64,000 bases of DNA from an uncultured Anaerolineales bacterium (GCA_964542755.1 CAZIWL010000007.1:1146-65145); one strand, 5' to 3'. Counted from the stretch's first letter, positions 1-33,929 are shown. Numbers and translations: made by a program. The notes: generated by a model from the letters alone, not told the origin.

Positions 1-1140
1 GACGACGTTCCGCATCCCCACCCCAGCCACTCGGGGACAGGGGCCTGGATTGTCAAGAACAGCTGGGGAACGGGGCATGGGAATCAAGGCTTCGGCTACC
101 TGGCCTTTGACTCGAGCGATACGCAGGGCGTCGGCTACCTCGACTACAGGGACGCACTCTCCTCGGAAGATCTGCTCCACTGGGACGAAGCCGGGCTTGT
201 GTACGGTGTGGGATACGCAAGCAATACGGCGTGGATGGCCAACGTCTTCACCAGCGATCGGGCACAGCGTCTGACTCACGTCGAGTTCTGGACCACGAGC
301 GACAGCGCCCAGTATGAGGTGTACGTCTGGGCCGGTCAGTTCGGCTCGCAGCTCGCACATCAGGCGGGCACCGCGCCCGAGTTCGGTTACTACTCCGTCC
401 CCCTCTCCACGCCGATCGCTGTTGCCGAGGGTCAAGCGTTCACTATTGGCGTCCGGATGACCACCCCGGGCTATAACCACCCTCTAGCCGTCGAGGGGGC
501 CTATCCGGCGGGGGGTGTCAATCCACCCATCCAGGCTGGCGTCAGCTTCTCCAGGGCCAGCGCAGGCGGTCCTTGGCAAGATCTTAGCGGCGACGATCTG
601 AACGCTTGCCTCCGCGCCCGGCTCTCTCCGCATGCCCGTGTCCTCTACATCCCACTGGTCGTGGGCGGCGAAGGGGCGATGTATGACTTCGAAGGCGGGG
701 GGGCTGGATGGTCCGAGTACTCCCGGCAGGGACGTACGGTTATCACCAACGATCTTCCTGACGGAATCACCGCACGCAGCGGAGACTGGGCCGCCTGGCT
801 GGGGGGCGCCTATGACGAGTTGTCGTACGTTCAGCGGTCAGTGGCTGTCTCGCATGCCTTCCCCTATCTTGCCTACTGGCATTGGATTGATTCAGTGGAC
901 TACTGCTACTACGACTTCGGCGGAGTCACGGTCAACGGGGTCGCCAGGGTCGAGGAGTACGATCTCTGCGCATCGGAGAATACCGGGGGATGGGTGCGGC
1001 GGGTCGTCGATCTATCCTCCTACACCGGGCAATCCATCACTCTGCGAATCTGGGCGGAGGCGGACTGGTCGCTCAGGAGCAGCCTCTTCATCGATGATGT
1101 GAGCTTCGTCGACAGCACGTCCGCAGCTGCCGCCCGGTAG
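1..1140 (+). CDS. Papain-family (C1A) cysteine peptidase, 5'-truncated by the window edge; lectin-like domain, then a YIPLV motif and a MAM/choice-of-anchor-J-like beta-sandwich tail
   Basis: Frame 1 is open from base 1 (DDVPHPHPSHSGTGAWIVKNSWGTGHGNQGFGYLAFD) and in frame with the listed ORF 199..1140. WIVKNSWG is the C1A catalytic-Asn motif. The downstream region (THVEFWTT, YSVPL, LRARL) parallels the next gene. The catalytic Cys and His lie outside the window. Confidence 0.85.
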   Translation, partial: DDVPHPHPSHSGTGAWIVKNSWGTGHGNQGFGYLAFDSSDTQGVGYLDYRDALSSEDLLHWDEAGLVYGVGYASNTAWMANVFTSDRAQRLTHVEFWTTSDSAQYEVYVWAGQFGSQLAHQAGTAPEFGYYSVPLSTPIAVAEGQAFTIGVRMTTPGYNHPLAVEGAYPAGGVNPPIQAGVSFSRASAGGPWQDLSGDDLNACLRARLSPHARVLYIPLVVGGEGAMYDFEGGGAGWSEYSRQGRTVITNDLPDGITARSGDWAAWLGGAYDELSYVQRSVAVSHAFPYLAYWHWIDSVDYCYYDFGGVTVNGVARVEEYDLCASENTGGWVRRVVDLSSYTGQSITLRIWAEADWSLRSSLFIDDVSFVDSTSAAAAR

Positions 1141-1151
1141 ACAAGCCTCGG

Positions 1152-1170
1152 CCCTCCCACAGCGGGAGGG
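1152..1170 (+). terminator. GC-rich hairpin after the first peptidase
   Basis: CCCTCCC-acagc-GGGAGGG is a perfect 7-bp stem 12 nt after the stop codon; there is no U-tract. Confidence 0.3.
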
Positions 1171-1328
1171 GCCCGGGTGCAGGGTCCAGCCGAATTGCCT
1201 GGAAAGGGCCGCAGATGGCGCCGGGCGCGTTCTCGCTTGACCATACTCCCGTCCTTGCCGTCGGAGATCTTGGATCCCGCCGGGGGTATACGCCCGCCCG
1301 AACACCGGAGCCTCGCCCCGCCTGCGCC

Positions 1329-1356
1329 TTGACAGATCGTGGGTCTCGGCTAGCAT
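1329..1356 (+). promoter_or_regulatory. Candidate sigma70 promoter for the second peptidase
   Basis: TTGACA(1329-1334)-16 nt-TAGCAT(1351-1356). A strong RBS (TAAGGAGGT) precedes ATG 1496. Confidence 0.5.
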
Positions 1357-1495
1357 GCGACTCTGGCTAGAAAGCCCCGTCGGCGGGTTTGGATCATCCA
1401 TCCTGGTCCCCTCTCCTGGGACGTCATCAGGCCCTCCGGCCCACGGACAGCCACCGCGGCTGCCGGTTCTGATGTCTCTCTAAGGAGGTATCGGG

Positions 1496-10252: not shown

Positions 10253-11416
10253 TCAGGTGCCTCTGGTGTCAAAGTCGAAACGGTCGAAGACCTCCCTGTA
10301 CCGGTCCACGATCTGCTCCTGGGTCAGTCCCATCTCCTCGAGCGAATACTCGTGCTCACTCTCGTGTTGACGGGCTCGCCGCGTCGCCTGGATCAGTATC
10401 TCGTCAAACTCGGAGCTCAGCTCCAAGCCAAATCGCTCATAGATCGTTCTCACCACCTCGTGCGCGTCGGTGACCAGATCGTCGAAACTCACCACGATGG
10501 CGCTATTCGGAAGAGCTCTGTCGAGATGCTCCAGGGGGTAGGTGTACCAGTGGTGGGCCATGTCGAGGATGTACTTGCGACTGCTGTAGGTCTCGACGGG
10601 ATCTCCCAGGAGCTGCCATTCATTCTCCTTCAAACTGATGTACGAGGGGATCATGTCGAGAGGGTTGCGCGCAAGATAGATGAACTTGGCGTCCGGAAAC
10701 TCGCGATACAGAGTGTCGACCATCGGTGAGAAATGGGGGTCCTTGGCCAGATAGCATCTCTCGCTGCCACTGTGGGCATAGATGTGTCGCTGAAGGCAGT
10801 GCGTATAGAACGCCATGATCCGTTCTTTTTCTTCTTCCGGCATCTGACTGTCGAAATACGTATACCGTTCAGCCTCATCCAGCATCGCCACGTACAGCCA
10901 TATCTTGAGCGTCGAGAAGATGTGGATCAGAAGGTACTCATCCTCTTCTGGTGCACGGAGGGCGATCCTATGAAGGACGTTGTCCTCTTGCCAGCCCTCC
11001 TCCAGCATGCCCAGCAGCCTGGCCATCGGTCTTCCGATCCGGTTGTCCAGCGAGGAGAGTGCCCAGAACGCTTTCCTCATTGTGACGGAAGGTGCGAGAA
11101 GCATCTCCCAAGTGCGCATAGAGAGGAACGTGGCCTCGTCTCTTGCCAGAAGACGCTGAAGAAAGGTCGTGCCGCTCCGTGGGTTCCCCACGATATAGAT
11201 GGGTCCTTTGATTCTTGCCTTGCGATAGCCTGGATAGAGGATCTCGTCAAGCAGGAAACCGGACCACGTCATAATCTGGACCAAGCCGTAGAGTGAGCCC
11301 GCTAGCGCTACCAGCCCGATCCGCTTCAGAGTCAGACGGTAGGCGGTCCCTTTGCTTTGAAAGAGTTGTTTGTAGAAAAATCGGGCGAAGCCCGCGAAAT
11401 TGTATGCCACGCCCAC
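10253..11416 (-). CDS. PAPS-dependent sulfotransferase with an N-terminal membrane segment
   Basis: IVGNPRSGTTFLQRLL (5'-PSB loop); LAKDPHF; YLARNPLDMIPSYISL (3'-PB motif); FDDLVTD. Confidence 0.88.
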   Translation of the reverse strand: MGVAYNFAGFARFFYKQLFQSKGTAYRLTLKRIGLVALAGSLYGLVQIMTWSGFLLDEILYPGYRKARIKGPIYIVGNPRSGTTFLQRLLARDEATFLSMRTWEMLLAPSVTMRKAFWALSSLDNRIGRPMARLLGMLEEGWQEDNVLHRIALRAPEEDEYLLIHIFSTLKIWLYVAMLDEAERYTYFDSQMPEEEKERIMAFYTHCLQRHIYAHSGSERCYLAKDPHFSPMVDTLYREFPDAKFIYLARNPLDMIPSYISLKENEWQLLGDPVETYSSRKYILDMAHHWYTYPLEHLDRALPNSAIVVSFDDLVTDAHEVVRTIYERFGLELSSEFDEILIQATRRARQHESEHEYSLEEMGLTQEQIVDRYREVFDRFDFDTRGT

Positions 11417-11471: not shown

Positions 11472-12359
11472 CTAAAGCACTCCAGCTTGCACCATGATGG
11501 CCTCTATGGTCTCAAGCTCAGCGTCGTGCAGTGTCCGGAGTGGCGAGCGGACGGGCCCGCCGTAGTACCCCAAGAAATCCAGAGCGGCTTTGAGGCCGGG
11601 CACACCGAAACCCGATGTGACCGCGGTGTTGAGCGGGACCAGTCTCTGTTGGAGGATAGCGCCTTCACGCCATTCCTCCCGCCGGTAGTGATGGTATAGA
11701 TCGATCAGCATCTGGGGCGCGACATTCGCCAGGGCCATCACGCCGCCGACGGCGCCTACAGCCAGGCCTGGGAAGAAGAAGCTGGCAGATCCAGCCAGGA
11801 CTTGGAGGTCGTCCTCAGCCGCGCCCACGATTTCGGCGAGTTTGCCGACGTTACCGCCACTGTCCTTCAGTCCCACCACATTCGGATGACGCCCGATATC
11901 CAAGATGGTCTCCGCGCTCATATCGATGTGGGTAAACCGCGGCATGTTGTAGATCATTACCGGTACAGGTACCTTTTCCGCCACCGCCTCAAAGTGGCGG
12001 CGCAGGGCGCCCGGGGACATCTTCCCCCCGTAATAATGAGGGGTCAGCACGAGCACCACGTCGGCACCGGCGTCGGCAGCCAACTGGCTGACGGCGATAG
12101 TCTGCCGTGTTGACTCACATCCTGTGCCGGCGATGACGAGTTTGTCCTCCGGCACCGCCCGACGCACCGTCTGCCAGACCTTGACCTTTTCTTCCGTCGT
12201 CAGGTAGACGCCCTCCCCGTTGGAGCCGAGGACAACGTACCCGGACAGGTCATACTCGTTCCAGCGGCCCAGGTTCTCGGCCAGGGCTCCCAGGGCGAGG
12301 TCTCCCCGCTCATCGAAAGGTGTCGGGATGGGCGGAAAGACGCCGTGCAAGGATAGCAT
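11472..12359 (-). CDS. DHDPS-family class I aldolase, 4-hydroxy-2-oxoglutarate aldolase (HOGA1)-like
   Basis: GSNGE (not DapA GTTGE), GCEST, TPHYYGGKM, IYN, Schiff-base KDSGG, LAGSA, GAVGGVMALANV and GYYGGPVRSPL match the recalled HOGA1 pattern. Start moved to ATG 12359 (GGAG RBS). Confidence 0.8.
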   Translation of the reverse strand: MLSLHGVFPPIPTPFDERGDLALGALAENLGRWNEYDLSGYVVLGSNGEGVYLTTEEKVKVWQTVRRAVPEDKLVIAGTGCESTRQTIAVSQLAADAGADVVLVLTPHYYGGKMSPGALRRHFEAVAEKVPVPVMIYNMPRFTHIDMSAETILDIGRHPNVVGLKDSGGNVGKLAEIVGAAEDDLQVLAGSASFFFPGLAVGAVGGVMALANVAPQMLIDLYHHYRREEWREGAILQQRLVPLNTAVTSGFGVPGLKAALDFLGYYGGPVRSPLRTLHDAELETIEAIMVQAGVL

Positions 12360-12478
12360 CTTTGTCTCCATAAGGGTGTCGTTGCTCCTCATCCTCTTGT
12401 GTTCCGCGGATTGCCAACCCCTGCTTCTCAGAGCCCCCCGCATCGAACCGCCGGAGACTCAGCATCGTGGGGTGTGGA

Positions 12479-13666
12479 CTAAGCTCCTACCCAGGCTTGC
12501 TGCGCCGCCGCCAGGCCCGCCCCCACATCAAACCCGTAGCCCACGTCCGCCAGGCCCTGCTCGACGGCGCTGATGGTGGCCATCACGTCGGACTGATTGA
12601 CTGCCCCCATATGCCCGATGCGGAAATAGCTTGACTTGATATCCGGGTGGAGGCCGCCGGCGAGGATGACCCCCGCCTCGTTGATGCGTGCAAGCACGGA
12701 GCGATCCACGCCAGCGGGGAAGCAGGGTGCCGTAAGCGTGCGGGCTGCCACCTCAGCGGTTGCCGGGACCTGTGCCATTCCCAGGGCGGCGACAGCTGCC
12801 TTCACCGACCTGCTGACCCGTCGGTGGCGCTCAAATCGGGCGTCCATCCCCTCCTCGAGGATCTGCCCGAGGCTGATGTTAAGGGCCCAGATCAGGTTCA
12901 CCGGCGGCGTTCCGAAGTAGCCGGTCTCGCGAGCCTCGTAAGCTTCCATGATCGGCAGCCATTTCGTCCAGTCTGAGTAGTAACTCACCACGGGGGACTT
13001 CCGCTCCCAGAAAGCCTTCATCGCCCGGGGTCCGGCCATCACCAGCGCAAGCCCGGGCGGAACACCGATCGCCTTCTGCGACGCAGTCAGGGCGAGGTCG
13101 ACGCCCCAGGCATCTTGACGGAGCTCCTCACCGGCAACCGAGCAGACGCCGTCGACGACGACGAGCACGTCGTGCTCTCGCCCGATCTCTGCCAGCGCTT
13201 TCACGTCGGCTGCGACCGCCGTCGACGTGTCGACCTGGGTGATCGTCATCAGCTTATAGCCTCGTCCCGAGCTCGCCTCGTGTGCTTCCAGGGCTACCCG
13301 AACCTCATCCAGCGGCGGCACGTCGCCTATGGCGGGGGCGCGAACGTGGTTGACTTCGGCTCCGTAACGCTGCAGGATCTCGCCGAAGCGATCCCCGAAG
13401 ACCCCTGTGTTGACCACCAGGGCTGCATCGCCGGGTTCGATCAAATTCGAAGCGGCCATATCCATGGCGAGTGTGCCGGATCCGGCGACGACGAACGGCT
13501 GCGCCTCAGGGGCGAGAAACACGTGGCGCAGTCGCTCCAGCGCTGTCCCAAAAACCTCGACAAACTGGGGAGCGACGTGGCTTGTCGTAGGCATACCCAT
13601 TGCCCTCATCACAGCCGGCGTAAACTCAATGGGGCCCGGTATCATAAGAAGCTTGCGATCTTTCAT
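12479..13666 (-). CDS. Class V PLP aminotransferase, alanine-glyoxylate/serine-pyruvate aminotransferase family
   Basis: MIPGP; GSGTLAM; DTSTA; VDGVCS; TASQKA (PLP lysine); YFGTPPV; FRIGHMG. Confidence 0.9.
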   Translation of the reverse strand: MKDRKLLMIPGPIEFTPAVMRAMGMPTTSHVAPQFVEVFGTALERLRHVFLAPEAQPFVVAGSGTLAMDMAASNLIEPGDAALVVNTGVFGDRFGEILQRYGAEVNHVRAPAIGDVPPLDEVRVALEAHEASSGRGYKLMTITQVDTSTAVAADVKALAEIGREHDVLVVVDGVCSVAGEELRQDAWGVDLALTASQKAIGVPPGLALVMAGPRAMKAFWERKSPVVSYYSDWTKWLPIMEAYEARETGYFGTPPVNLIWALNISLGQILEEGMDARFERHRRVSRSVKAAVAALGMAQVPATAEVAARTLTAPCFPAGVDRSVLARINEAGVILAGGLHPDIKSSYFRIGHMGAVNQSDVMATISAVEQGLADVGYGFDVGAGLAAAQQAWVGA

Positions 13667-15979: not shown

Positions 15980-16981
15980 TCAAGGCGCGCTTGCCGGATC
16001 CGTGTCGGAGTAGCGCTGGGCTATCTCGAGCAACGTCGGGATGTGTACGTTCCCCCCGCTGAGGACGACGGCGACGTTCTTGCCCAGTTGTTCGGCTCTG
16101 CCGGAAAGAACGGCGGCCAGCGCCACGGCGCCTCCCCCCTCCAGTACCAGATGATGATGCTTCAGGGCGAAGGCCATCGCCTCGGCGATCTCCTCCTCTG
16201 TTACTACCATGGTTGCATCGACGTACCTCTGGACCATGCAGAACGTGTACCGATTCGAGAGCCCGATACCGCCCGCCAGGGCGTCGGCCAGCGTCGGCTC
16301 TTCCTCCATTTCGATCGGTTTACCAGCTCTGAGGCTGTGGACCATCACCGGGGCGCGCTCCATCGATACGCCCACCGTCCGGATCGATGGGTCGGCCGCC
16401 TTCACTACCAGCGCAATACCCGAGATCAGTCCGCCGCCCGAGAGGGGGACCAGCACGGTGTCTAGCTCAGGAAGGTCCTCAAGGAGCTCCAGACCGATGG
16501 TTCCCTGTCCGGCGATGATCAGTGGATCGTCGAAGGGCGGGATCATCGTCAGCCCCTGGTCCTCCCGAACGTCGACGGCCCGCCGTTCGGCCTCGTCGTA
16601 GCTGTCGCCGTGCAGGACAACCTCGGCACCCAGACTTCGGATGCTCTCCACTTTGTTTGATGGGACGCGGGTCGACATACAGACCACGGCCCGGATCCCG
16701 AGCTCCTGTGCCACCAGAGCGACCGCCCTGCCGTGGTTCCCGCTGGAGACAGTGATGACCCCTCGGGCGCGCTGCTCCTGTTCCAGCCTGCGCAGCTTGT
16801 TGGCGGCGCCCCGGATCTTGAAGGCCCCGGAGCGCTGGACGTTCTCCAACTTCAGGTGGCAACGGACGCCCGTGCGCTCCTCCAGCGCGCTGGAGGGGAA
16901 GAGGGGTGTCCGGATGGCGATGCTCTGAATCGCACGCCTGGCCTCGTAGACGTCACGTAGCGTCACAGCTGCGTCAGTCAC
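15980..16981 (-). CDS. PLP fold-II threonine/serine dehydratase, EutB-like
   Basis: LKLENVQRSGAFKIRGA; SSGNHG; IIAGQGT; PLSGGGL; EPTLADALAGGIGLSNRYTF (EutB-type segment); VVLSGGN. Confidence 0.85.
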   Translation of the reverse strand: MTDAAVTLRDVYEARRAIQSIAIRTPLFPSSALEERTGVRCHLKLENVQRSGAFKIRGAANKLRRLEQEQRARGVITVSSGNHGRAVALVAQELGIRAVVCMSTRVPSNKVESIRSLGAEVVLHGDSYDEAERRAVDVREDQGLTMIPPFDDPLIIAGQGTIGLELLEDLPELDTVLVPLSGGGLISGIALVVKAADPSIRTVGVSMERAPVMVHSLRAGKPIEMEEEPTLADALAGGIGLSNRYTFCMVQRYVDATMVVTEEEIAEAMAFALKHHHLVLEGGGAVALAAVLSGRAEQLGKNVAVVLSGGNVHIPTLLEIAQRYSDTDPASAP

Positions 16982-17002: not shown

Positions 17003-18130
17003 TCAGACGGCCTGCAACTCGATGATCAGATCGTGGATACGATCTAGAGCTGGGCGCAGGTAGTCAGCGGGAAGCCCAAAGCTGATTCGGAGGTGATGGT
17101 CGACACCGAAATGGTCCCCTGCCCCAACCAGGACGCTCTTCTCGCGGATGAGGCGATCCACAAGCTCAGTTGAGTTGATATCCAGGTGATAACGCGGGAA
17201 GGCGATGGCCGCTGCCCGGGGTGGAACCAGACTGAGGGTTCCTTCGTGTTCCTCCAACCAGGCCTCGAAGATCGCAAATCCCCTTCGGATATACCCGCGA
17301 ACACGCTGAATCAGACGAGGACGCACCGAGGGGGAGAGGGCAACGGTCGCGAGCTTGTTGGAAAGCATCGTGGCGCTGATTGTCGCGTACTCGTGACGTC
17401 TCCAGATGGCGTCCCGTGTCTCCTCCGGAGCAACGACCCAGCCGATGCGCAGTCCAGGCAGCCCGTAAGCCTTGCTCAGGCTGTTCATCGCCAGGACTCT
17501 GTCGTAGCGTCCCCAGAAAGTCGGCGTCTGTTCATCCGTCAGCCGTTCCGCTCCGCTGTAGACCTCGTCGGCCAGGATCCAGGCCCCCACCCGATCCGCA
17601 GCCTCCGCAATGCCGTCCATCTCGTCCTCTGAGAGGATGGCCCCCGTGGGGTTGTTCGGATTGCAGACCGCGATCAACTTGGTCTCCTCCGTCACCCTGT
17701 CGTTTAACTCGTCCAGATCCGGGGCCCATCCTTGCTCCTCTCGTAGGTGGAACGGCTTCACCCTGTACCCGCGATTGTGGCCGATGCCCCAGATCTGCAG
17801 ATAGTTGGGAAGCATCACCACGATCTCATCGCCTCTGTCGAGCATGGTCTCGACGGTGATGTAGTTAGCCTCGGCGCAGCCAACCGTCACGAGCACGTTG
17901 TCTGGACCAGCCCCCGGGTAGAGGGCGGCAATCCGCTCCCGCAGTTCCGGGGTGCCCTCCACGTGGGGGTAGTTGAGCTCTGTCGCCATCAGATCATCAA
18001 GGTCCGAACCGTCGCTCAACAACTCTTGCAGCGTCAGAGGATGGGCGCCGCTTTCGGAGAGATTGAACTCGACAGCCTGTTCCCAGTCTGACATGATGCG
18101 CTCAAGCTCGAAGGGGTGAAACTCGGTCAT
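17003..18130 (-). CDS. Class I/II PLP aminotransferase
   Basis: NPNNPTG; ADEVY; SLSKAYGLPGLRIGW (PLP lysine); HLRISF. Confidence 0.9.
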   Translation of the reverse strand: MTEFHPFELERIMSDWEQAVEFNLSESGAHPLTLQELLSDGSDLDDLMATELNYPHVEGTPELRERIAALYPGAGPDNVLVTVGCAEANYITVETMLDRGDEIVVMLPNYLQIWGIGHNRGYRVKPFHLREEQGWAPDLDELNDRVTEETKLIAVCNPNNPTGAILSEDEMDGIAEAADRVGAWILADEVYSGAERLTDEQTPTFWGRYDRVLAMNSLSKAYGLPGLRIGWVVAPEETRDAIWRRHEYATISATMLSNKLATVALSPSVRPRLIQRVRGYIRRGFAIFEAWLEEHEGTLSLVPPRAAAIAFPRYHLDINSTELVDRLIREKSVLVGAGDHFGVDHHLRISFGLPADYLRPALDRIHDLIIELQAV

Positions 18131-20941: not shown

Positions 20942-23308
20942 CTAGAATCCCTTGTGCTCGGTCCGGGCGATGATCTCATCCTGCAGGGCCCGGCTCAGGT
21001 CACAGAAGTAGTCGCTGTACCCTGCCACGCGCACGATCAGGTCCCGGTAGTCGTCAGGGTGCTCCTGGGCCGCTCGCAGCGTCTCCGCATCCACCACGTT
21101 GAACTGAATATGGTGCCCATCTAGATTGAAGTACGTGCGGATCAACCGGGCAAACTTGTCCAAGCCGTCATCGCCCTCCAGCACCTGTGGCGTGAACTTC
21201 TGATTGAACAGGGTACCGCCCGTTCGAACGTGATCCATCTTGGTGACAGATCTTATGACCGCCGTCGGTCCCTTGCGGTCGGCTCCCTGGACCGGTGAGA
21301 TTCCTTCGGAGATAGGGCTGCCGCCCCTCCGACCGTCGGGCAAGGCGCCCACAACCGAGCCGAAGTAGACGTGTACCGTCGTGGGCAGCATGTTCACCCG
21401 GTAGGTGCCGCCGCGCGGTGTCGGTCGCCCGTCGACGGCGTTGAAATACGCCTCGAAGACGGCGACCATCACGGCGTCTGCGTAATCGTCGTCGTTGCCG
21501 TATTTGGGGGTCCGGTTTAGAAGCTGTTGCCGGAACCGTTCGCTGCCGCCGAAATCCTCCTGGAGCGCCCGTAGGAGCTCACCCATGGAGAGCGTCTGTT
21601 GGTCAAAGACGTGGTACTTCACGGCAGTCAAGGCGTCACTCATCGTGCCCAGTCCGACGCCCTGGATGTAGTTGGTGTTATAGCGCGTCCCCCCGTCGTG
21701 GTAGTCTCTGCCCCTCGCCACGCAATCGTCCGTCAGAAGGGAGAGGAACGGAGCCGGTAGTTCGCGAGCGAAGAGCCGCTCGATCACATTGTTGCCCCGG
21801 ACCTTGACGTCGATGAAGTACTGGAGCTGCTTTCGGTAGGCGTCGAAGAGCTCTTCGAAGGTCTCAAAGGTTGTCGGATCACCCGTCGACAGGCCGATCA
21901 CATCTCCGGTCCTTGGATCAACCCCATTGTTGAGTGTGATCTCGAGGACCTTGGGCATATTGAAATAGCCGGTTAGGATGTAGCTCTCTTTGCCGAAGGC
22001 CCCCGCCTCGACGCAGCCGCTCGTACCTCCCGCTCGGGCATCCTCGATCGACTTTCCTTGCCTCACCAGCTCCTGAACGATTAAGTCACAGTTGAACACG
22101 TCGGGCTTGCCCATTCCTTGACGGATTACCCGGCAAGTGTGGTCGAGGAATCCCCTGGGGCTCTTCTTGCTGATCTGGACCGATGGGTTGGGCTGCACCT
22201 GACGCATCGTTGCGATCACGTCTAGCATCAGGTGTGAGAGCTCGTTGGAGCCGTCGGAGCCATCCTGCCTCAGCCCGCCGAGGTTGATCTGCACGAAATC
22301 GGTGTACGTGCCGCTTTCCTCGGCCGTCACGCCTACTTTGGGCGGGGCCGGCTGATTGTCGAACTTGATCCAAAGGCACTGGAGCAATTCCTCGGCCTCT
22401 TCGCGTGTCAATGTGCCCGCGTCGACGTCCCGACGGTAGAACGGAAAGAGGTGTTGATCCAGATGCCCGGGACAGAACGCATCCCACGGATTCAACTCAG
22501 TGGTGACTCCGAGGTGCACGAACCAGTAGTACTGGATCGCCTCCCAGAAACTACGCGGCCCGTGCGCGGGGACGTGTCTGCAGATCGCGGCGATGCGGTC
22601 CAATTCCGCCCTCCGATCAGGGTCATTCTCCTGGCTGGCGAGCTCGATAGCCAGATCCGCGTGACGCTCCGCGAATCGAACCAGGGCATCCGCACAGATC
22701 CGCATAGCCGTCAACTCTTCCTGCTTGTCGTAGGCCTCTGGGTCGCCCAGGTAGTCGAGACCCCTCAGCTGCTGCGTGATCTCCCGCTTGAAGTCGAGCA
22801 TCCCCTTGCTGTATATCTTATCGTCGTGGACAGTGTGCCCCGGGGAGCGCTGCTCCATGAACTCGGTGAAGACCCCCGCTTCGTAAGCGGCCTTCCACGC
22901 CTCGGTCATCTCACCGAATATCCTGTCTCGCATCGACCGACCCTCCCAGAAGGGAATGATCGTGTCGCGGTAGACCCTCTTGGCGTCGTCGCTGACGGCG
23001 AAGGACGTCTTCTCCCGTGAGTCGAGAATATCGAGGTCTTCCATGGAGTGGCAGCAGAGCTCTGGGTACGTGGGGGCTGCCTTCGGGCGGGGGCCTTTCT
23101 CTCCCACGATCAGCTCGTCTGGCGCGATTATGATCGTCTTCCTGTCCATCAGATGACGGAAGGCCAGCGCACGCTCCACCGGCGTCGACAACGGTCGTCG
23201 CTGTTCTTTGTAGAACGCCGTCAGGAGCTCGGCCCGTTCGGCTGAGAGCGCGGTGACAGCCTCGCGGCTCTGCTCCCTCAGTCGACAAACTCGTTCAGTC
23301 ATTTCCAT
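20942..23308 (-). CDS. hypD: Glycyl radical enzyme, trans-4-hydroxy-L-proline dehydratase (HypD)-type
   Basis: RVAGYS (glycyl radical); GTSGCVE (Cys/Glu). TEFMEQRSPGHT, WDAF, ESGTYTDF, SYILTGY and MLPTT carry the residues recalled for C. difficile HypD (F152, H160, D278, S334, D339/F340, Y450, T645). Length is 788 aa. Confidence 0.85.
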   Translation of the reverse strand: MEMTERVCRLREQSREAVTALSAERAELLTAFYKEQRRPLSTPVERALAFRHLMDRKTIIIAPDELIVGEKGPRPKAAPTYPELCCHSMEDLDILDSREKTSFAVSDDAKRVYRDTIIPFWEGRSMRDRIFGEMTEAWKAAYEAGVFTEFMEQRSPGHTVHDDKIYSKGMLDFKREITQQLRGLDYLGDPEAYDKQEELTAMRICADALVRFAERHADLAIELASQENDPDRRAELDRIAAICRHVPAHGPRSFWEAIQYYWFVHLGVTTELNPWDAFCPGHLDQHLFPFYRRDVDAGTLTREEAEELLQCLWIKFDNQPAPPKVGVTAEESGTYTDFVQINLGGLRQDGSDGSNELSHLMLDVIATMRQVQPNPSVQISKKSPRGFLDHTCRVIRQGMGKPDVFNCDLIVQELVRQGKSIEDARAGGTSGCVEAGAFGKESYILTGYFNMPKVLEITLNNGVDPRTGDVIGLSTGDPTTFETFEELFDAYRKQLQYFIDVKVRGNNVIERLFARELPAPFLSLLTDDCVARGRDYHDGGTRYNTNYIQGVGLGTMSDALTAVKYHVFDQQTLSMGELLRALQEDFGGSERFRQQLLNRTPKYGNDDDYADAVMVAVFEAYFNAVDGRPTPRGGTYRVNMLPTTVHVYFGSVVGALPDGRRGGSPISEGISPVQGADRKGPTAVIRSVTKMDHVRTGGTLFNQKFTPQVLEGDDGLDKFARLIRTYFNLDGHHIQFNVVDAETLRAAQEHPDDYRDLIVRVAGYSDYFCDLSRALQDEIIARTEHKGF

Positions 23309-23391: not shown

Positions 23392-24294
23392 CTATCCGGG
23401 CATCACGTTCAAACCCCGGGACCGTAGACGCTCCCGGACCTCTTCAATCCTCTCCGGCCCGGGCGGTTGGATCTCTGGCATAGGACAATGCTTGCCCAAC
23501 CGCTCATACTTATCGCGCCCGATCTCATGATACGGCAACACGTCAATTCCATCAAGGGCCGGAAGGCTGAGGGCGAGGGTGCCGATGGCGCGAAGACTCG
23601 ACTCATCCTCGTTGATTCCCGGTATCAGCGGCACACGTAGAAGGATGTGCTCACCGTGCTGGGAGAGTGCACGCAGGTTTGCCAGGATGCGCTCGTTGGA
23701 CACACCCGTGACCTCCCGGTGGCGCTGGTCGTCAACCAGTTTCAGATCGTACAGGAAAAGGTCCACGTCCTCCCGCAGCTCATCAAGCACAGTCCAGGGT
23801 CCAAAGCCGCAGGTGTCCAGACAGGTGTGAACCCCCTCTCGGCGGCAAGCCGCCAGGAGACCGCGCAAAAAGTCCGGCTGGGACAGCGGTTCACCCCCTG
23901 AAAACGTGACGCCACCCTCGGACGTATCATAGAAAGGTGCGTCACGCAGGATCTCGTCCACCACCTCGCCGACGGTCATCTCCCGGCCCACCATCTCACG
24001 TGCCTCGGCGTAGCAGACCTCGACACAGGCCCCGCAGCGGGTGCAGCGCCTCCTGTCCGTGGTCATGTCACACTCATCGGATGCGATAGCGCCCTGCTTG
24101 CAGACAGCGACACAGGCCTGGCATCCGATACACCGTCCAGGGCGCAGGATCAGCTCCGGCGCGAGTAACTGTCCCTCGGGGTTATGACACCACCAGCAGT
24201 GCAGGGGGCAACCCTTGAGAAACACCGTGGTCCGAATCCCCGGGCCGTCGTGTATCGAGAACTTCTTGATGTCAAAGACGATTCCGCTCAACAT
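23392..24294 (-). CDS. GRE activating enzyme (radical SAM) with a ferredoxin-like insert
   Basis: DGPGIRTTVFLKGCPLHCWWCHNPE; CIGCQACVAVC and CTRCGACVEVC; GGVTFSGGEP; LPYH. Confidence 0.95.
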   Translation of the reverse strand: MLSGIVFDIKKFSIHDGPGIRTTVFLKGCPLHCWWCHNPEGQLLAPELILRPGRCIGCQACVAVCKQGAIASDECDMTTDRRRCTRCGACVEVCYAEAREMVGREMTVGEVVDEILRDAPFYDTSEGGVTFSGGEPLSQPDFLRGLLAACRREGVHTCLDTCGFGPWTVLDELREDVDLFLYDLKLVDDQRHREVTGVSNERILANLRALSQHGEHILLRVPLIPGINEDESSLRAIGTLALSLPALDGIDVLPYHEIGRDKYERLGKHCPMPEIQPPGPERIEEVRERLRSRGLNVMPG

Positions 24295-30439: not shown

Positions 30440-31597
30440 CTACTTAAGCTTCTCTTCGGCACCAAACTCCCGATAGGGACTGAGCTCCTCAAGCGTTTCC
30501 TCATCCTCCGGCGTCAGGTCCTCCTGGACCAGACGGCAGAGCACAGATCCCAGGCCGGGCCCGAGCATGAAACCCTGACCGCACATGCCGACGGCGAAGA
30601 TATAGCCCTCCAGTCCCTTGGAGCGTCCGACGATGGGGAAGCCATCGGGCGTCATGGGATAGAGCCCGCGCCACGTTCGGCGAACTCGAATGTTCGCGAG
30701 CTTCGGCATTAGGCCGACCATCCGCGGCGCTATCATGGGCAGGAAATCTGAAGTCTCTCGGCGATCGGTCCCTACGATGGGGGGCTCGGGGGTGATACAG
30801 AACACCAGGGCTCCGGTTCCGTGCTGATAGAAGTAGTAGTTCTTCGAGCCCTCAGCCGGGCGCAGGTCGACGACCATAGGTTCGAGAAACCGTCTCACCG
30901 GTTCTGTGATGCCTGCCTCGTGGCTGTCCGGGGTCACCGGCGCGTCGAGCCCTGCCATCCGGGCCGCCTGTCGACCCCACGCTCCAGCCGCGTTAATGAC
31001 TGTCTCCGTCGCGTATCCTCCCTGGTCCGTCCGGACGCCAACAACCTTGCCCCGTCGCGTAATGATGCCCGTGACTCTCTCGTTGAAGTGAAATCGTGCT
31101 CCGCGCTCCGCAGCACGCTTGTAGAAGGCGTGAGCACTGAGGAGCGGGGACGCGGAGCCGTCGCTGGGTGAGTAGGTACCGCCGATCAGGTTATTCCGGT
31201 TCAGCGAAGGGATGACGTCGAGCAGATCGTCCCGGTTCAGCCACTTGATCTCCAGCCCGAAGCCATGCTGGACGTCTAGCAGGTCCTTCAGGGCTTGTTC
31301 CTCCCGCTCGCGGTAGGCGACGAAGGAGTAGCCGCCCCGGTGCCACTCGATGTCATCGCCGTAAGTCTCTTCCCATGTGGAGAAGACCTGAAGCGACTCG
31401 ATGCATAGGCGAATCTTGGACCTGGCTGAGTGCGTGGCTCGGATGCCGCCGATGGCAGCCTTGTTGGACCCCTGCCCAGGACTGGCGAATTGGTCGATGA
31501 CCAGGGGCTGGAGGCCTGCCTCGGCTAGAGAGAGAGCTGTCGGCAGTCCCACACTCCCCGCACCGATGATCACGGCGTCGTAGACTTTGGTGGTCAT
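30440..31597 (-). CDS. DAO-family FAD oxidoreductase, beta subunit of a dye-linked proline dehydrogenase/sarcosine-oxidase-like complex
   Basis: IIGAGSVG; GSNKAAIGGIR; VINAAGAW; RTWRGLYPMTPDGFPIVG; GMCGQGFMLGP. Confidence 0.85.
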   Translation of the reverse strand: MTTKVYDAVIIGAGSVGLPTALSLAEAGLQPLVIDQFASPGQGSNKAAIGGIRATHSARSKIRLCIESLQVFSTWEETYGDDIEWHRGGYSFVAYREREEQALKDLLDVQHGFGLEIKWLNRDDLLDVIPSLNRNNLIGGTYSPSDGSASPLLSAHAFYKRAAERGARFHFNERVTGIITRRGKVVGVRTDQGGYATETVINAAGAWGRQAARMAGLDAPVTPDSHEAGITEPVRRFLEPMVVDLRPAEGSKNYYFYQHGTGALVFCITPEPPIVGTDRRETSDFLPMIAPRMVGLMPKLANIRVRRTWRGLYPMTPDGFPIVGRSKGLEGYIFAVGMCGQGFMLGPGLGSVLCRLVQEDLTPEDEETLEELSPYREFGAEEKLK

Positions 31598-31599
31598 GC

Positions 31600-33732
31600 T
31601 TACATGCCTCCCTCGTGTGCGTCCGTGGCGTGGGTGACCAGCACGTGTTCGGAAGGTCTCTCCCCCGCGCTAACCCCGGCGAAAGCCCCGAGGGGGACCT
31701 CCATGAAGAGCGGACGCTGTGTGTTCTCCTCGATGCTCTCGAGCTCGATCCCTTCCTCGCGGAAAAGCCGCTCGATCAGCGTGGTACACGTCTTGCCGCC
31801 GCAGGCTCCCATCCCGGCCCGAGTGACGGCTTTGATGTAGTTCATGTCGCGCACACCAGACCGAATCAGTTCCCGGATCTCCCCCGCCGTGACCCGCTCA
31901 CAACGGCAGATGATCTCGTCGTCCGCTAGCCGCTCAACGGCCTGTCCCTCGGCCTCCGTGACCCAGGGGTCCTGGACTCGAATGCCGGCGATCCGTTTCG
32001 CGATCTCTCGGGGCGCTCTCACTCGCACGAGGAGGGCACGGTCGGCAAACCGGGGGGTGCGCACACGCGAGACCTCAACGTTGCCAAGCACCTTTCCTTC
32101 CGTGTCCAGCACGGTCACAATGTCGCCGGCGTCGATGGTCTCCGATGGGAACTCGTAGGGGATTGTGACTGTGGGACGCAAGCGGTCGTCACGGTAATCG
32201 ACCAGTGTGATCGCCAGTCCCGGACAGACGGCGACGCACTGCTCGCAACCGATACATCCGTCTCCGATGTACTGCGGCAGGCCGCGGATGTCATTGCGCT
32301 CGATGACGATGCTTTCCTGAGGGCACACGGACGTGCAAGGGTTGCAGGGGATTTCCTGAGCACAGTGGAGGACCGGCAGGACACCTTCCTCCCCCTCCGG
32401 GATGTCCTCCGTCACGACGGCGCCAGGCCTCGACTTGAGAATCTCGGCGGTCCGATGCCACTCGGGGGGAATGTCCCCTACGTCCCTCCCCAACGTTCTC
32501 GCGATCTCCAGGCCACGAATCCGACCGGTGAACATAGCTGCCGATGCCTCGGCAATCTCCTCTGCGTCGCCAGCTGCGTAGACAGGAAGACCAAAGGTCT
32601 CTGCCTTCTCCACGAACTCGTCCACCGGCTCCAGCCCAACAGCCACGAGGACTGTATCGCACGCAAAGGTCTTCTCCGTGTCGGGGATGGGTTCCCAGTT
32701 GTTGTCGATCTCGGCGATGGTGACCGAATCGACCCGACTCTCGCCGTTGGCGCTTACGATGGTGTGGGAGGTGTAGATCGGGACGCCCAGGCGGCTCAAC
32801 TTGTCCTTGTGAACCTTGTAGCCGCCACACTCAGCCAGCGCCTCGCAGAGACCGATTACCTTGATATCCGCCTGCAGGGCGTGATAGCCAGCTATCAAGC
32901 CCACGTTCCCCCCGCCCACGATGAACAGCCGATCAGCCGACTTCACCATGTCGCGGTTGACCAGCGTCTGGAACGCACCGGCACCGTAGACACCGGGCAG
33001 GGTGTTCCCCTTGAACGCCAGGGACTTCTCCCGGGCCCCGGTTGCCACCAGAAGTGTCTGAGGGCGGACCAGCAGATAGTGACCCTCCCTCAGCAGACCG
33101 ACTTTTCTGTCGGAGAAGACGGCAAGGGCCGTAGAGTCCAGCCAGACCTGCACGTTCTCGAAGTCACGCACCTCTTCTTCGAGTTTCTCGGCGATGTCGA
33201 TGCCTCTCGTCCCAGCGTAGCAAGCTTCAATCGATCCGAAGAATTTGTGCGTCTGGAGCACCAGCTTGCCCCCCAGACGGTGTTTGTCGTCGACGATGAG
33301 GGTCCGGACGCCAGCCTTGCCCAGTTCGATGGCCGCGGAAAGCCCGGCCGGACCGCCGCCAATGATCAGGCACTCGATGTCGATCGTTCCGATGGGGTGA
33401 GTCTCCGGCGCGCTCTGAATGTCAGGCAGGGTCGGCCGTCCGTCCATGGGCTGGACATCCATCCCGGCAAGCACGGGTGCCATACACGACTTGACGGGGA
33501 TGCCATCCGCCATCACCAGGCACTGAGCACATTGCCCGTTGGCACAGAAGATGCCCTGGGGGGCGCCGTCCTTATGGTGATGCCCGAATATGCGGATGCC
33601 GTTGGCGAACAGGGCCGATGCGATGGTCTCACCCGCGTGCCCCGTCAGGGTCTCACCCTGCCAGGTGAACTCGACGGCCTCTTCCTCTTCGGCCGCGAGG
33701 ATGGGATGCTCACGGATCCGATAGTCCGTCAT
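31600..33732 (-). CDS. Fused alpha subunit: 2Fe-2S domain, FAD/NAD oxidoreductase, 2x[4Fe-4S] ferredoxin and BFD-like Fe-S domain
   Basis: GIFCANGQCAQC; IIGGGPAGL; ATGARE; VGGGNVG; CAQEIPCNPCTSVCP and CIGCEQCVAVCPG; IICRCERV...RAGMGACGGKTC. Start set at ATG 33732 (AAGGAG RBS). Confidence 0.85.
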   Translation of the reverse strand: MTDYRIREHPILAAEEEEAVEFTWQGETLTGHAGETIASALFANGIRIFGHHHKDGAPQGIFCANGQCAQCLVMADGIPVKSCMAPVLAGMDVQPMDGRPTLPDIQSAPETHPIGTIDIECLIIGGGPAGLSAAIELGKAGVRTLIVDDKHRLGGKLVLQTHKFFGSIEACYAGTRGIDIAEKLEEEVRDFENVQVWLDSTALAVFSDRKVGLLREGHYLLVRPQTLLVATGAREKSLAFKGNTLPGVYGAGAFQTLVNRDMVKSADRLFIVGGGNVGLIAGYHALQADIKVIGLCEALAECGGYKVHKDKLSRLGVPIYTSHTIVSANGESRVDSVTIAEIDNNWEPIPDTEKTFACDTVLVAVGLEPVDEFVEKAETFGLPVYAAGDAEEIAEASAAMFTGRIRGLEIARTLGRDVGDIPPEWHRTAEILKSRPGAVVTEDIPEGEEGVLPVLHCAQEIPCNPCTSVCPQESIVIERNDIRGLPQYIGDGCIGCEQCVAVCPGLAITLVDYRDDRLRPTVTIPYEFPSETIDAGDIVTVLDTEGKVLGNVEVSRVRTPRFADRALLVRVRAPREIAKRIAGIRVQDPWVTEAEGQAVERLADDEIICRCERVTAGEIRELIRSGVRDMNYIKAVTRAGMGACGGKTCTTLIERLFREEGIELESIEENTQRPLFMEVPLGAFAGVSAGERPSEHVLVTHATDAHEGGM

Positions 33733-33929
33733 TGGGTCTCTCCTTGTCTCGATCCGCACTTTTGTTCACCTCTCTTGCTGGTCGGCTGCCTCCACGTATC
33801 GAGTGGCCGGCAGTGAATATGCGGGAACTCAAGCTCAGCTGCGGTCGCAGAGGGGGCTTATCTAAGGCCGTGTCCCAAGATGGTGATCAGCCACCGCTCG
33901 GGAAGCTGTGTGCGCTCTCTTCCCCGCCG

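Follow-up and report, generated by a model that had tools for sequence, protein, structure and literature searches.

Does this locus in an uncultured Anaerolineae bacterium of marine sediment encode the end of hydroxyproline breakdown as it is known from animals? In mammals, HOGA1 splits 4-hydroxy-2-oxoglutarate (HOG) into pyruvate and glyoxylate, and alanine-glyoxylate aminotransferase (AGT) turns the glyoxylate into glycine; HOGA1 is the gene of primary hyperoxaluria type 3, and AGXT that of type 1. To our knowledge, the breakdown of hydroxyproline (Hyp) via HOG and glyoxylate is regarded as belonging to animals, with bacteria being credited with either an epimerase/deaminase route or the HypD route, and the literature searched contained no account of a HOGA1-type Hyp route in bacteria. 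The preliminary description of the 64,000-nucleotide stretch of DNA analysed here (the window) proposed that a HOGA1-like aldolase gene following an AGT-family gene marks the animal-type route in this bacterium. The two genes and the spacer between them are as follows.

11472..12371, minus strand: HOGA1-type class I aldolase (DHDPS family), 299 aa, predicted from PF00701, the match to 3s5o, active-site residues and tree
12372..12478, minus strand: spacer from the AGT stop to the aldolase start, 107 nt, from sequence reading and scan
12479..13666, minus strand: class-V aminotransferase of the alanine/serine-glyoxylate (AGT) family, 395 aa, predicted from PF00266, the match to AGX1 and motifs

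The aldolase ORF is intact and stays open, on the minus strand, as far as an ATG at 12443 (11472-12443). Translation most likely begins at the ATG at 12371 (METKML...) instead of the one at 12443, since an identical database protein (cluster representative P0006) has 299 aa and all homologs are about 299 aa long. The five motifs that had been read as HOGA1-type (GSNGE, GCEST, KDSGG, LAGSA and GYYGGPxRxPL) are all found in the translation, within LGSNGEG, GTGCEST, LKDSGGN, VLAGSA and GYYGGPVRSPL. A DHDPS-family TIM-barrel domain spans the full length of the protein (PF00701, 177 bits, residues 32-318, profile positions 2-287 of 289). When the PDB was searched with phmmer, the top match was human HOGA1 (3s5o, 268 bits, E 5e-79), with the next-best DHDPS-family structure at 154 bits and 143 other DHDPS-family sequences at or below 154. 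Reciprocally, the window aldolase is the top match in the genome when human HOGA1 is the query (43.6% identity over 289 aa). Judged by these scores, the resemblance to HOGA1 is much too strong to be due to chance.

The active site agrees with this assignment. In hHOGA, S77, N78, Y140, Y168, K196, S198 and G222 are important by mutagenesis, with Lys196 forming the Schiff base and Lys196, Tyr168 and Tyr140 being catalytic (PMC3188589). All seven are kept in the alignment of the window aldolase: the catalytic columns Lys196/Tyr168/Tyr140 read K/Y/Y, and the substrate-binding columns Ser77-Asn78 (GSNGE), Ser198 (KDS) and Gly222 read S, N, S and G. The HOGA-specific Asn78 occurs in 79/80 members of the clade to which the aldolase belongs and in 0/10 outgroups. 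In trees with human HOGA1 as the sole eukaryotic sequence, human HOGA1 is nested within the aldolase's bacterial clade, with a support of 99 in the first tree and 100/99 in the careful tree. A phylogeny against HOGA1, DapA, LhpC and KDG aldolases had been set beforehand as a test by the preliminary description; the aldolase sides with HOGA1, with DapA, NanA, KDG aldolases and LhpC falling outside, and a grouping with DapA is rejected by the AU test (p=0.0007). By tree, active-site residues and reciprocal best match, the prediction that the window aldolase is a HOGA1 ortholog is well supported, and on the same kind of sequence evidence it is one of many true HOGA1 orthologs that make up a large clade in bacteria.

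Two other enzymes of the family had to be weighed against this identification. The gene could be the organism's DapA (4-hydroxy-tetrahydrodipicolinate synthase), serving lysine/DAP synthesis, given that the genome has dapB but no canonical-size DapA and that its other DHDPS-family genes are just two DHDPS-Fae fusions, both without Arg138. However, fusion 1 passes the DapA cut-off with 213 bits, whereas the window aldolase scores 172.2 bits on the DapA equivalog TIGR00674, below the cut-off of 206.15, and has S, N and F at DapA Thr44, Thr45 and Arg138 (E. coli numbering). Further, 42/51 aldolase-bearing genomes have a separate DapA above cut-off, and canonical-size DapA of 290-395 bits is present in most of the non-Chloroflexota ones. 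The TIGR00674 score, residues, tree and AU test together led us to rule out a DapA identity, and we hold a role of this gene in lysine synthesis to be highly improbable.

It is also very unlikely that the aldolase cleaves a 2-keto-3-deoxy sugar acid (KDG/KD-pentonate type) to pyruvate and glycolaldehyde or glyceraldehyde, with neighbouring dehydrogenases and the AGT handling the oxidised two-carbon product. Such a reading can draw on the Fe-ADH, Zn-ADH and 2-hydroxyacid dehydrogenase genes that flank the aldolase at some loci and on YagE/YjhH being the nearest outgroup of the HOGA1 clade in the careful tree, at a weak support of 88/70. Yet YagE reaches just 102 bits in the phmmer search of the PDB, against 268 for HOGA1, the archaeal KDG aldolase model gives 71 bits against a cut-off of 390, Gly replaces Asn78 in both YagE and YjhH, and neither a sugar-acid dehydratase nor a sugar transporter lies nearby.

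The aminotransferase gene is intact, lies directly upstream of the HOGA1-type aldolase on the same (minus) strand, and matches Aminotran_5 (PF00266). Its best solved relatives are yeast AGX1 (2bkw, 268 bits) and Sulfolobus AGXT (3zrp, 231 bits), and the Nostoc, Arabidopsis and human AGTs score 145-180 bits (human about 145). The alignment with AGX1 is full-length, and the motifs TASQKAIG, VVVDGV and FRIGHMG align with those of AGX1; we take SQKA to hold the PLP lysine, VDGV to hold the aspartate that contacts PLP-N1, and the arginine of FRIGHMG to bind the substrate carboxylate. The top NCBIfam match is BhcA, at 239 bits versus a cut-off of 650, and no equivalog cut-off is reached. The assignment of 12479-13666 to the AGT family, closest to yeast AGX1, is well supported by these matches, and the aldolase does follow an AGT-family gene, as had been stated, with the class-V aminotransferase 107 nt upstream. 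Within the spacer, a GAGGAG element lies 13 nt ahead of the aldolase ATG at 12371, and a promoter and terminator scan found neither a promoter-like nor a terminator-like site there. After the aldolase, a terminator-like hairpin at 11394-11382 lies inside a sulfotransferase ORF and is hence uninformative.

Taken together, we consider it fairly probable, at roughly 60%, that this HOGA1-ortholog aldolase and the AGT form a module that ends Hyp/4-hydroxyglutamate breakdown, with the substrates predicted from the families to which the two enzymes belong. The aldolase would cleave HOG by Schiff-base (class I) chemistry to pyruvate and glyoxylate, and the AGT-family PLP aminotransferase would convert the reactive glyoxylate to glycine, making the pair a small end module of oxidative 4-hydroxyproline/4-hydroxyglutamate breakdown that yields pyruvate and glycine.

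The pairing recurs well outside this genome. Among the 80 best-matching loci, 33 have an AGT-family gene within 3 kb of the aldolase and on its strand; they span about nine phyla, and the two genes occur in either order. Of the 42 loci with 3 kb or more of flank to each side, 21 have such a gene. The phyla include Chloroflexota, Bacteroidota, Ignavibacteriota, Planctomycetota, Bipolaricaulota, Thermotogota, Bacillota and Synergistota. When the class was sampled evenly, just 6/49 aldolase genes had an AGT-family neighbour. The adjacency is thus repeated but far from universal, which leads to the question of whether it is incidental in this lineage, with the AGT serving general serine/glycine/alanine metabolism and the aldolase acting independently. 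AGT orthologs are found in 82/201 genomes of the class, mostly without the aldolase (55/151 aldolase-free genomes have one); the low count in the even sample and the 107-nt spacer between the two genes point the same way. Against this, a same-strand pairing at 33/80 loci, spread over many phyla and found in either order, greatly exceeds what chance would give with one to three AGT-family genes per genome, and the other recurrent neighbours of the aldolase likewise act on glyoxylate, all of which makes an incidental adjacency distinctly unlikely.

These other neighbours are GlcD-like FAD oxidases and GhrA-like glyoxylate-reductase-type dehydrogenases, which among the best 80 loci adjoin the aldolase at 13 loci (in three gene orders) and 7 loci, respectively. 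The GlcD-like gene (TIGR00387, 450 bits) is the commonest third partner in Anaerolineae, and the operon of Bacteroidales relatives runs GhrA-like gene, aldolase, AGT. At two loci, proline dehydrogenase genes of two unrelated kinds adjoin the aldolase-AGT pair. One (L079) has the order M24 Xaa-Pro peptidase, Pro_dh, aldolase, AGT-like gene, S37/S28-family peptidase, and genomes with this type of arrangement have a second Pro_dh elsewhere. The other (L069) has the order dehydrogenase alpha subunit (PDHalpha), DAO-family subunit, aldolase, AGT. Ignavibacteriota relatives have a dedicated Pro_dh paralog, with a P5CDH-type ALDH above the TIGR01236 cut-off elsewhere in the genome in one of the three. 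PALP and class I aminotransferase genes flank the aldolase at L062 and L075 too, although they belong to other subfamilies than those of the window, and the class I gene linked to the aldolase at L075 is AspAT-like.

Co-occurrence was assessed over 201 genomes of the class with tests that treat genomes as independent of phylogeny, so that kinship is ignored in the values given here: the aldolase co-occurs with HypD (OR 4.9, p=1.4e-5), with PDHalpha (OR 3.2, p=0.008) and with the AGT (OR 2.0, p=0.03). Both Pro_dh and the dehydrogenase complex are absent from about 20 of the 51 genomes with an aldolase, among them four (G034, G035, G039 and G042) that nonetheless have AGT, GlcD-like gene and aldolase together.

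Genomes of this last kind suggest another role, in which the aldolase-AGT pair serves glyoxylate/glycolate metabolism in general, as a hub without input from Hyp. HOG would then come from another source, or the aldolase would condense glyoxylate with pyruvate (for example, in the use of algal glycolate), while glycolate, glyoxylate and glycine would be interconverted by the AGT, joined in relatives by the GlcD-like enzyme. The rank of the GlcD-like genes among the partners in Anaerolineae fits such a hub, as does the origin of the organism, the public runs bearing its sequence being DNA from marine sediment and seawater. However, two unrelated proline dehydrogenases and proline-specific peptidases adjoin the aldolase (L069 and L079), the aldolase is enriched among HypD-holding genomes, and no enzyme that would take HOG onward in a synthetic direction was found. 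We also know of only one well-known biological source of HOG, namely 4-hydroxyglutamate/Hyp. The hub is, in our judgement, unlikely, though it deserves to be taken seriously.

If the module does end Hyp breakdown, the window and the genome should be able to deliver HOG. The features that bear on this are listed below.

15980..16981, minus strand: EutB-like PALP dehydratase (EutB model 411.7 bits vs 413 cut-off), pathway link unproven
17003..18130, minus strand: class I aminotransferase (PRK07324/GntC/VioD models best), pathway link unproven
20942..23308, minus strand: HypD glycyl-radical trans-4-hydroxy-L-proline dehydratase (NF043068)
23392..24294, minus strand: HypD activase (radical SAM)
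30440..31597, minus strand: DAO-family beta subunit of an L-proline-dehydrogenase-type complex, candidate first step (PF01266, 1y56_B)
31600..33759, minus strand: Fe-S/flavin alpha subunit of the same complex (Pfam)

Here, oxidation of hydroxyproline by the Fe-S L-proline-dehydrogenase-type complex (30440-33759) would be the origin of the HOG. The top solved relative of the DAO subunit is 1y56_B (P. horikoshii PH1364) at 180 bits, with the next at 96, and PH1363/PH1364 is an alpha4beta4 L-proline dehydrogenase (PMC4364671). The alpha subunit is a 719-aa fusion of Fer2_4, Pyr_redox_2, 4Fe-4S and BFD 2Fe-2S domains. Orthologs of both subunits occur at L069 (DAO 63% identical and directly upstream of aldolase-AGT; alpha 67%). 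A proline-racemase-family gene is found in the same locus of the window as the DAO subunit. The proposal of this complex as an upstream candidate is borne out in part: the similarity to 1y56_B and the L069 orthologs beside aldolase and AGT speak for it, but in the window the complex lies 17 kb from the aldolase, in a locus with HypD. The call of a HypD radical route near the aldolase was correct (NF043068, 1295 bits, over the cut-off of 1100); it is a separate, reductive Hyp route and thus another fate for Hyp.

The racemase-family gene and the DAO/Fe-S dehydrogenase also bring to mind the LhpC-type arrangement, in which the aldolase would be a DHDPS-family deaminase acting after an epimerase and a D-Hyp dehydrogenase. 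For comparison we used an ORF of the S. meliloti pSymB Hyp region (L086:9015-10031), a region found via two proline-racemase homologs; we take this ORF to be the deaminase from its place near the two proline-racemase-family genes and from the layout of that locus. LhpC, the Pyr4H2C deaminase, is indeed a DHDPS-family enzyme (PMC4113996), but the pSymB ORF is just 28% identical to the window aldolase (45 bits), carries M for N78, V for Y140 and F for S198, and falls far outside the HOGA1 clade, and an LhpC identity was rejected on these grounds. In addition, the window DAO is nearest to an L-proline dehydrogenase beta subunit, ALDH as the next enzyme of that route is absent, and the glyoxylate-handling neighbours would be left unexplained, so that we attach only the slightest probability to a deaminase.

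For the HOGA1-type route, the upstream steps are the difficult ones. The genome is 97% complete with an average GC of 63.3%, and profile searches of it found no match to Pro_dh (PF01619) anywhere. The preliminary description had noted that the P5C/3-OH-P5C dehydrogenase step is absent from the window, and this absence extends to the whole genome, where profile searches, including TIGR01236, gave no match; a copy elsewhere in the genome, for which the description had left room, was not found. The single PF00171 (ALDH) match is BADH-like and lies on a contig of 70.2% GC that looks foreign. At least 8 genes for tungsten-type aldehyde:ferredoxin oxidoreductases (AOR) are present in the genome, and 3-OH-P5C might be converted to 4-hydroxyglutamate by a non-ALDH enzyme for which one AOR is a possible candidate; with an AOR near the aldolase in just 1/80 loci, these genes are not linked to the aldolase, and AOR as a substitute for ALDH is speculation. 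The class I aminotransferase at 17003-18130, which had been put forward for an upstream step, belongs to a separate four-gene unit and is PRK07324/GntC/VioD-like, not AspAT-like; these family matches led us to discard it as a GOT2 equivalent. Many class I aminotransferases occur across the genome, with none linked to the aldolase here. A transamination step might be supplied by the AGT itself, which may take 4-hydroxyglutamate as amino donor and glyoxylate as acceptor.

The idea that this bacterium runs the animal-type route is supported in its final part, through the identities of aldolase and AGT and their recurring pairing, and is weakened further up by the lack of Pro_dh and P5C dehydrogenase in the genome. 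The hydroxyproline pathway is partly supported, and that this bacterium runs the whole of it is an inference, one step being without a candidate of the expected family. A bolder scheme, which we regard as doubtful, would have a ferredoxin-linked animal-type Hyp route in strict anaerobes, this bacterium among them, with the Fe-S L-proline dehydrogenase complex in place of PRODH2, a tungsten AOR in place of ALDH4A1, and the AGT pairing the aldolase's glyoxylate with 4-hydroxyglutamate, so that two enzymes would give pyruvate and glycine; this branch would balance the HypD branch 7 kb off in a Stickland-like Hyp disproportionation. As a corollary, eukaryotic HOGA1 would derive from this bacterial clade.

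Taken by itself, the window yields a well-grounded functional annotation in which the upstream steps are explained in part. Beyond it, the clade shows recurrent linkage to counterparts of the two remaining primary hyperoxaluria genes, AGT-family (AGXT) and GhrA-like (GRHPR-type), and in some phyla to dedicated proline dehydrogenases and proline-specific peptidases as well. If the reading is true, there would be a third microbial route for collagen-derived hydroxyproline, in which glyoxylate is released or detoxified, with a bearing on sediment carbon and nitrogen turnover and possibly on gut microbial oxalate precursors, and the HOGA1/AGXT/GRHPR trio would gain simple bacterial models.

Among known systems, the classical bacterial Hyp pathway consists of LhpA epimerase, LhpB(EF) D-Hyp dehydrogenase, LhpC deaminase and LhpG ALDH, and shares with the window a set of DHDPS-family, proline-racemase-family and DAO-family enzymes (PMC4113996). 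It differs in that the window aldolase is not LhpC-like, that there is no ALDH, and that the predicted products are pyruvate and glyoxylate, not 2-oxoglutarate. The dye-linked L-proline dehydrogenase clusters of Thermococcus/Pyrococcus (PH1363/PH1364; T. litoralis OCC_00332-00372) resemble the window in the DAO subunit, which is nearest to PH1364, and in the proline racemase homolog in the same locus, but as described they are without a HOGA1-type aldolase or AGT, and the window alpha subunit, as a fusion, has extra Fe-S domains.

Human/bovine HOGA1 (3s5o/3s5n) and the window aldolase share the DHDPS fold family, 43.6% identity, the seven residues and the clade, whereas the latter is without a mitochondrial presequence, comes from an anaerobic sediment bacterium, and has an activity that is predicted; the DapA Arg138 column holds Phe in the window aldolase and Asn in human HOGA1. 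With the AGTs (AGX1 2bkw, Sulfolobus AGXT 3zrp and human AGXT 1h0c), the window enzyme has the class-V fold and the PLP-Lys/Asp/Arg motifs in common, while it stays under every NCBIfam equivalog cut-off and has orthologs that are widespread without the aldolase; its amino donor could be 4-hydroxyglutamate, aspartate, alanine or serine.

Animal Hyp catabolism proceeds through PRODH2, ALDH4A1, GOT2 and HOGA1, then AGXT/GRHPR. In the genome studied here, ALDH4A1 has no counterpart and no GOT2-like gene is linked, and PRODH2 would be replaced by the non-homologous Fe-S L-proline-dehydrogenase-type complex, which may cover this step by analogy. The last two enzymes, in contrast, are present and linked in the window, the AGT beside a predicted glyoxylate-producing aldolase mirrors the animal metabolic order, and the GhrA-like/aldolase/AGT operon of Bacteroidales parallels GRHPR/HOGA1/AGXT.

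The aldolase gene of the window and the class-V aminotransferase gene upstream of it are both intact:

11472-12443, minus strand: aldolase ORF, 323 aa (DHDPS family, PF00701, 177 bits in Pfam)
12479-13666, minus strand: class-V aminotransferase ORF, 395 aa (PF00266 in Pfam)

Because the length is about 299 aa both in a database protein of identical sequence and in nearly all homologs, the true aldolase start is most likely the ATG at 12371 (METKML...), which is preceded by GAGGAG and lies 107 nt beyond the aminotransferase stop. The sequence recurs in metagenomes of marine sediment and seawater, where the matching runs are DNA only. At 11382-11394 (minus strand), 78 nt past the aldolase stop, a GC-rich hairpin with a T-run behind it falls within the predicted N-terminus of a sulfotransferase ORF (10253-11416); it is either a chance match or an indication that the sulfotransferase starts further downstream.

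The preliminary description had called the aldolase HOGA1-like from motifs that are all present in the translation (GSNGE, GCEST, KDSGG, LAGSA, and GYYGGPVRSPL), and this assignment held up. In a search of all solved structures, human HOGA1 (3s5o/3s5n) scored 268 bits against the window aldolase, versus 154 bits for the next DHDPS-family chain, 100-140 for typical DapA chains, and 102 for YagE, and the aldolase falls far under the cut-offs of the NanA, KdgD, HpaI, and archaeal KDG-aldolase NCBIfam models. The reciprocal search of the whole genome with human HOGA1 retrieved the window aldolase first (43.6% identity, 232 bits), with the next match at 94 bits. A structural and mutational study of the human enzyme identified Lys196, Tyr168, and Tyr140 as catalytic and Ser77, Asn78, Ser198, and Gly222 as substrate-binding residues, Asn78 and Ser198 being those that differ from DapA (PMC3188589). 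In our alignment, 7/7 of these residues are kept in the window aldolase, while the column of DapA Arg138 holds Phe. Of 80 bacterial homologs, 79 retain Asn78 and 70 retain Ser198 (the other 10 have Thr); Asn78 occurs in 0/10 outgroup sequences.

For phylogeny, annotated records supplied the references (E. coli DapA, NanA, YagE, and YjhH; S. meliloti and N. gonorrhoeae DapA; and the DHDPS-family gene that lies beside two proline-racemase homologs in the hydroxyproline region of S. meliloti pSymB), with the aligned part of human HOGA1 as the sole eukaryotic sequence. Human HOGA1 fell inside the bacterial clade in the 91-sequence tree (support 99), well separated from all references, and the clade of window aldolase and human HOGA1 received 100/99 in a 32-sequence tree under a site-heterogeneous model. 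The window aldolase grouped with neither DapA nor KDG aldolases, and its placement with DapA was rejected by the AU test (p=0.0007). Since human HOGA1 branches inside bacterial sequences, the trees suggest that the eukaryotic gene came from bacteria, or that transfer ran in the opposite direction. In both trees this one eukaryotic sequence paired as sister with L072, a sequence from an Anaerolineales MAG, near NC10/Syntrophales. The pSymB reference gene, the S. meliloti deaminase candidate, is 28% identical to the window aldolase over 204 residues, and an LhpC identity of the window aldolase was rejected.

Could the gene instead be this organism's DapA? The genome carries a good dapB, yet apart from the window aldolase, its DHDPS-family genes and DapA candidates are confined to two fusions in tandem outside the window (C64:14800-17722), both without Arg138 and with Phe at Tyr107, one of them barely above the dapA cut-off (213 bits). 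In these fusions, about 480 aa each and found in many Anaerolineae, a domain of the DHDPS family is joined to one resembling the formaldehyde-activating enzyme (Fae). However, the window aldolase itself scores 172 bits against the NCBIfam dapA model, below the cut-off of 206, and because a separate DapA above cut-off exists in 42/51 aldolase-bearing genomes (most of those outside Chloroflexota having canonical-size genes at 290-395 bits), DapA is not the conserved function of the clade. We regard a DapA role here as very improbable.

The neighboring gene had been described as AGT-family, which its relatives and catalytic motifs bear out. Yeast AGX1, an alanine-glyoxylate aminotransferase (268 bits), and the AGXT of Sulfolobus (231 bits) are its best solved relatives, ahead of cyanobacterial, plant, insect, and human AGTs, and the SQKA lysine, VDGV aspartate, and RIGHMG arginine all align. 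No NCBIfam equivalog was reached, the top model being aspartate-glyoxylate aminotransferase BhcA (239 bits versus a cut-off of 650). AGT membership is solid at the family level. The HOGA1 and AGT identities are thus established as far as sequence can carry them. The identity of the aldolase gene is not new, as IMG already names homologs "4-hydroxy-2-oxoglutarate aldolase" by orthology.

A scan with one genome per species found 260 relatives of the aldolase, and among the best 80 of these 260 loci, 33 have an AGT-family gene on the same strand within 3 kb, in either order (21/42 where at least 3 kb of flank is available on both sides). The phyla represented among the paired loci are Chloroflexota, Bacteroidota, Ignavibacteriota, Planctomycetota, Bipolaricaulota, Thermotogota, Bacillota, and Synergistota. 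For a family of 1-3 copies per genome, so many pairings greatly exceed the chance expectation. In an even class sample of 201 genomes, 50 carry the aldolase, none of them in more than one copy, and the six from the window's own order all lack it, which is an accessory-gene pattern. Neighborhoods fetched for all 49 other carriers showed an AGT-family neighbor in only 6; AGT orthologs occur without the aldolase in 55/151 genomes, and across genomes the two are weakly associated (OR 2.0, p=0.03). The two genes form a module that recurs without being a fixed operon.

The P5C/3-OH-P5C dehydrogenase, which the preliminary description had noted as absent from the window, was found neither there nor in the rest of the genome (97% complete). 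Pfam Aldedh has one match in the whole genome, a betaine-aldehyde-dehydrogenase-like protein far below P5CDH cut-offs, and TIGR01236 (P5CDH-type) has none. This lone ALDH gene adjoins an aspartate-dehydrogenase-like gene on contig C60 (24.9 kb, outside the window; 70.2% GC versus 63.3% for the genome), probably bin contamination. Pro_dh was likewise not found in the genome. The class I aminotransferase (17003-18130), offered as a candidate for the upstream steps, is not supported as the 4-hydroxyglutamate transaminase: it best matches PRK07324/GntC/VioD-type models, and its unit also contains genes for an EutB-like dehydratase, an EamA exporter, and a DUF3159 protein. The radical route suspected nearby is real, the glycyl-radical enzyme at 20942-23308 being a bona fide HypD (1295 bits versus a cut-off of 1100); because it is encoded, the organism certainly handles hydroxyproline (Hyp), by the HypD route at least. 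Outside the window, C82:10700-19900 holds a GntR-like regulator, two proteins of about 480 aa that look MttB-like by eye, a class I aminotransferase, and a second proline-racemase paralog that shares 52% identity with the one in the window (a third is on C256), and may serve proline-betaine/N-methylproline demethylation.

Most Bacteroidota, Ignavibacteriota, and NC10 carriers have Pro_dh, and P5CDH-type proteins exceed the TIGR01236 cut-off in 6/7 Bacteroidota, 1/3 Ignavibacteriota-type, one Planctomycetota, and one Acidobacteriota genome (G008 and G027), making a full animal-type set plausible in most Bacteroidota carriers; the others, including 3/7 NC10 genomes, have weaker matches only. Anaerobes with the Fe-S proline-dehydrogenase complex are without ALDHs. 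The window's genome has at least eight genes of the AOR family (tungsten-type aldehyde:ferredoxin oxidoreductases), and ferredoxin-linked aldehyde oxidation could fill the ALDH gap, though only as a hypothesis, since AOR genes are unlinked to the aldolase (1 of the best 80 of 260 loci).

Gene rows around aldolase homologs in other genomes
L079:4816-13392 (Ignavibacteriaceae): sensor histidine kinase, sigma-54 response regulator, M24 Xaa-Pro aminopeptidase, Pro_dh, aldolase, AGT-like gene, S37/S28-family peptidase
L069 (Thermotogae): PDHalpha, DAO, aldolase, AGT
L075:9036-14865 (Synergistales): Asp/Glu-racemase-family gene, aldolase, AspAT-like class I aminotransferase, AGT-like gene, PALP enzyme
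L051, L053-L056, L061 (Bacteroidales/Sphingobacteriia): GhrA-like 2-hydroxyacid dehydrogenase, aldolase, AGT

The L079 row is tidy and operon-like, and its Pro_dh-aldolase arrangement recurs in L070 and L073. In L069, the PDHalpha and DAO subunits are 67% and 63% identical to those of the window (31600-33759 and 30440-31597); the window DAO is closest to PH1364 (1y56_B, 180 bits versus 96 for the next), which in Pyrococcus is the beta subunit of an alpha4beta4 L-proline dehydrogenase (PMC4364671). With Pro_dh in L079 and a PH1364-type complex in L069, two non-homologous proline dehydrogenases are each placed beside the same aldolase-AGT pair, and these two loci connect the module with proline-type substrates. 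HypD occurs in 24/50 aldolase carriers versus 24/151 non-carriers (OR 4.9, p=1.4e-5) and a PDHalpha ortholog in 13/50 versus 15/151 (OR 3.2, p=0.008), which is supportive, not decisive, because these statistics ignore phylogeny and lifestyle. L075 has a second AGT-like copy about 7 kb upstream. The region 1-3808 of the window, about 8 kb from the aldolase, encodes secreted C1 (papain-family) proteases that carry a lectin-like domain; such a protease is immediately upstream of the pair in L045:7291-9882 (Phycisphaerales), and M28, M42, or M24 peptidases flank the aldolase at other loci.

Unbiased clustering of neighboring ORFs, followed by family scans, recovered further partners among the best 80 of 260 loci: a GlcD-like FAD oxidase in 13 (orders AGT-GlcD-aldolase, GlcD-AGT-aldolase, and aldolase-AGT-GlcD), a GhrA-like D-2-hydroxyacid dehydrogenase directly upstream of the aldolase in seven, six of them Bacteroidota, and Fe- or Zn-alcohol dehydrogenases in a few. 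Because each of these partners works at the level of glyoxylate/glycolate, they fit an aldolase that yields glyoxylate. The same partners could mark a glyoxylate/glycolate hub unrelated to Hyp, which, set beside the proline dehydrogenases adjoining the pair, we consider unlikely; other rivals have small odds.

We favor, at a probability of roughly 60%, a reading in which Hyp passes through the window's L-proline-dehydrogenase-type complex, the best-supported source of 4-hydroxy-2-oxoglutarate (HOG), and would then be oxidized to 4-hydroxyglutamate and transaminated, perhaps by AGT itself with glyoxylate as acceptor. The conserved lysine would bind HOG as a Schiff base for cleavage to pyruvate and glyoxylate, and AGT would turn glyoxylate into glycine; we infer the substrates, direction, and origin of HOG. 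A full-text literature search yielded no report of hydroxyproline breakdown by a HOGA1-type route in bacteria; the comparative context given here makes a concrete, testable case for such a route, whose anaerobic variant without ALDH is what may prove new.

The genomes of L079, L070, and L073 carry a second Pro_dh elsewhere, reminiscent of mammalian PRODH and PRODH2, and the bacterial operon of GhrA-like dehydrogenase, aldolase, and AGT mirrors the human trio GRHPR, HOGA1, and AGXT, all three primary-hyperoxaluria genes.
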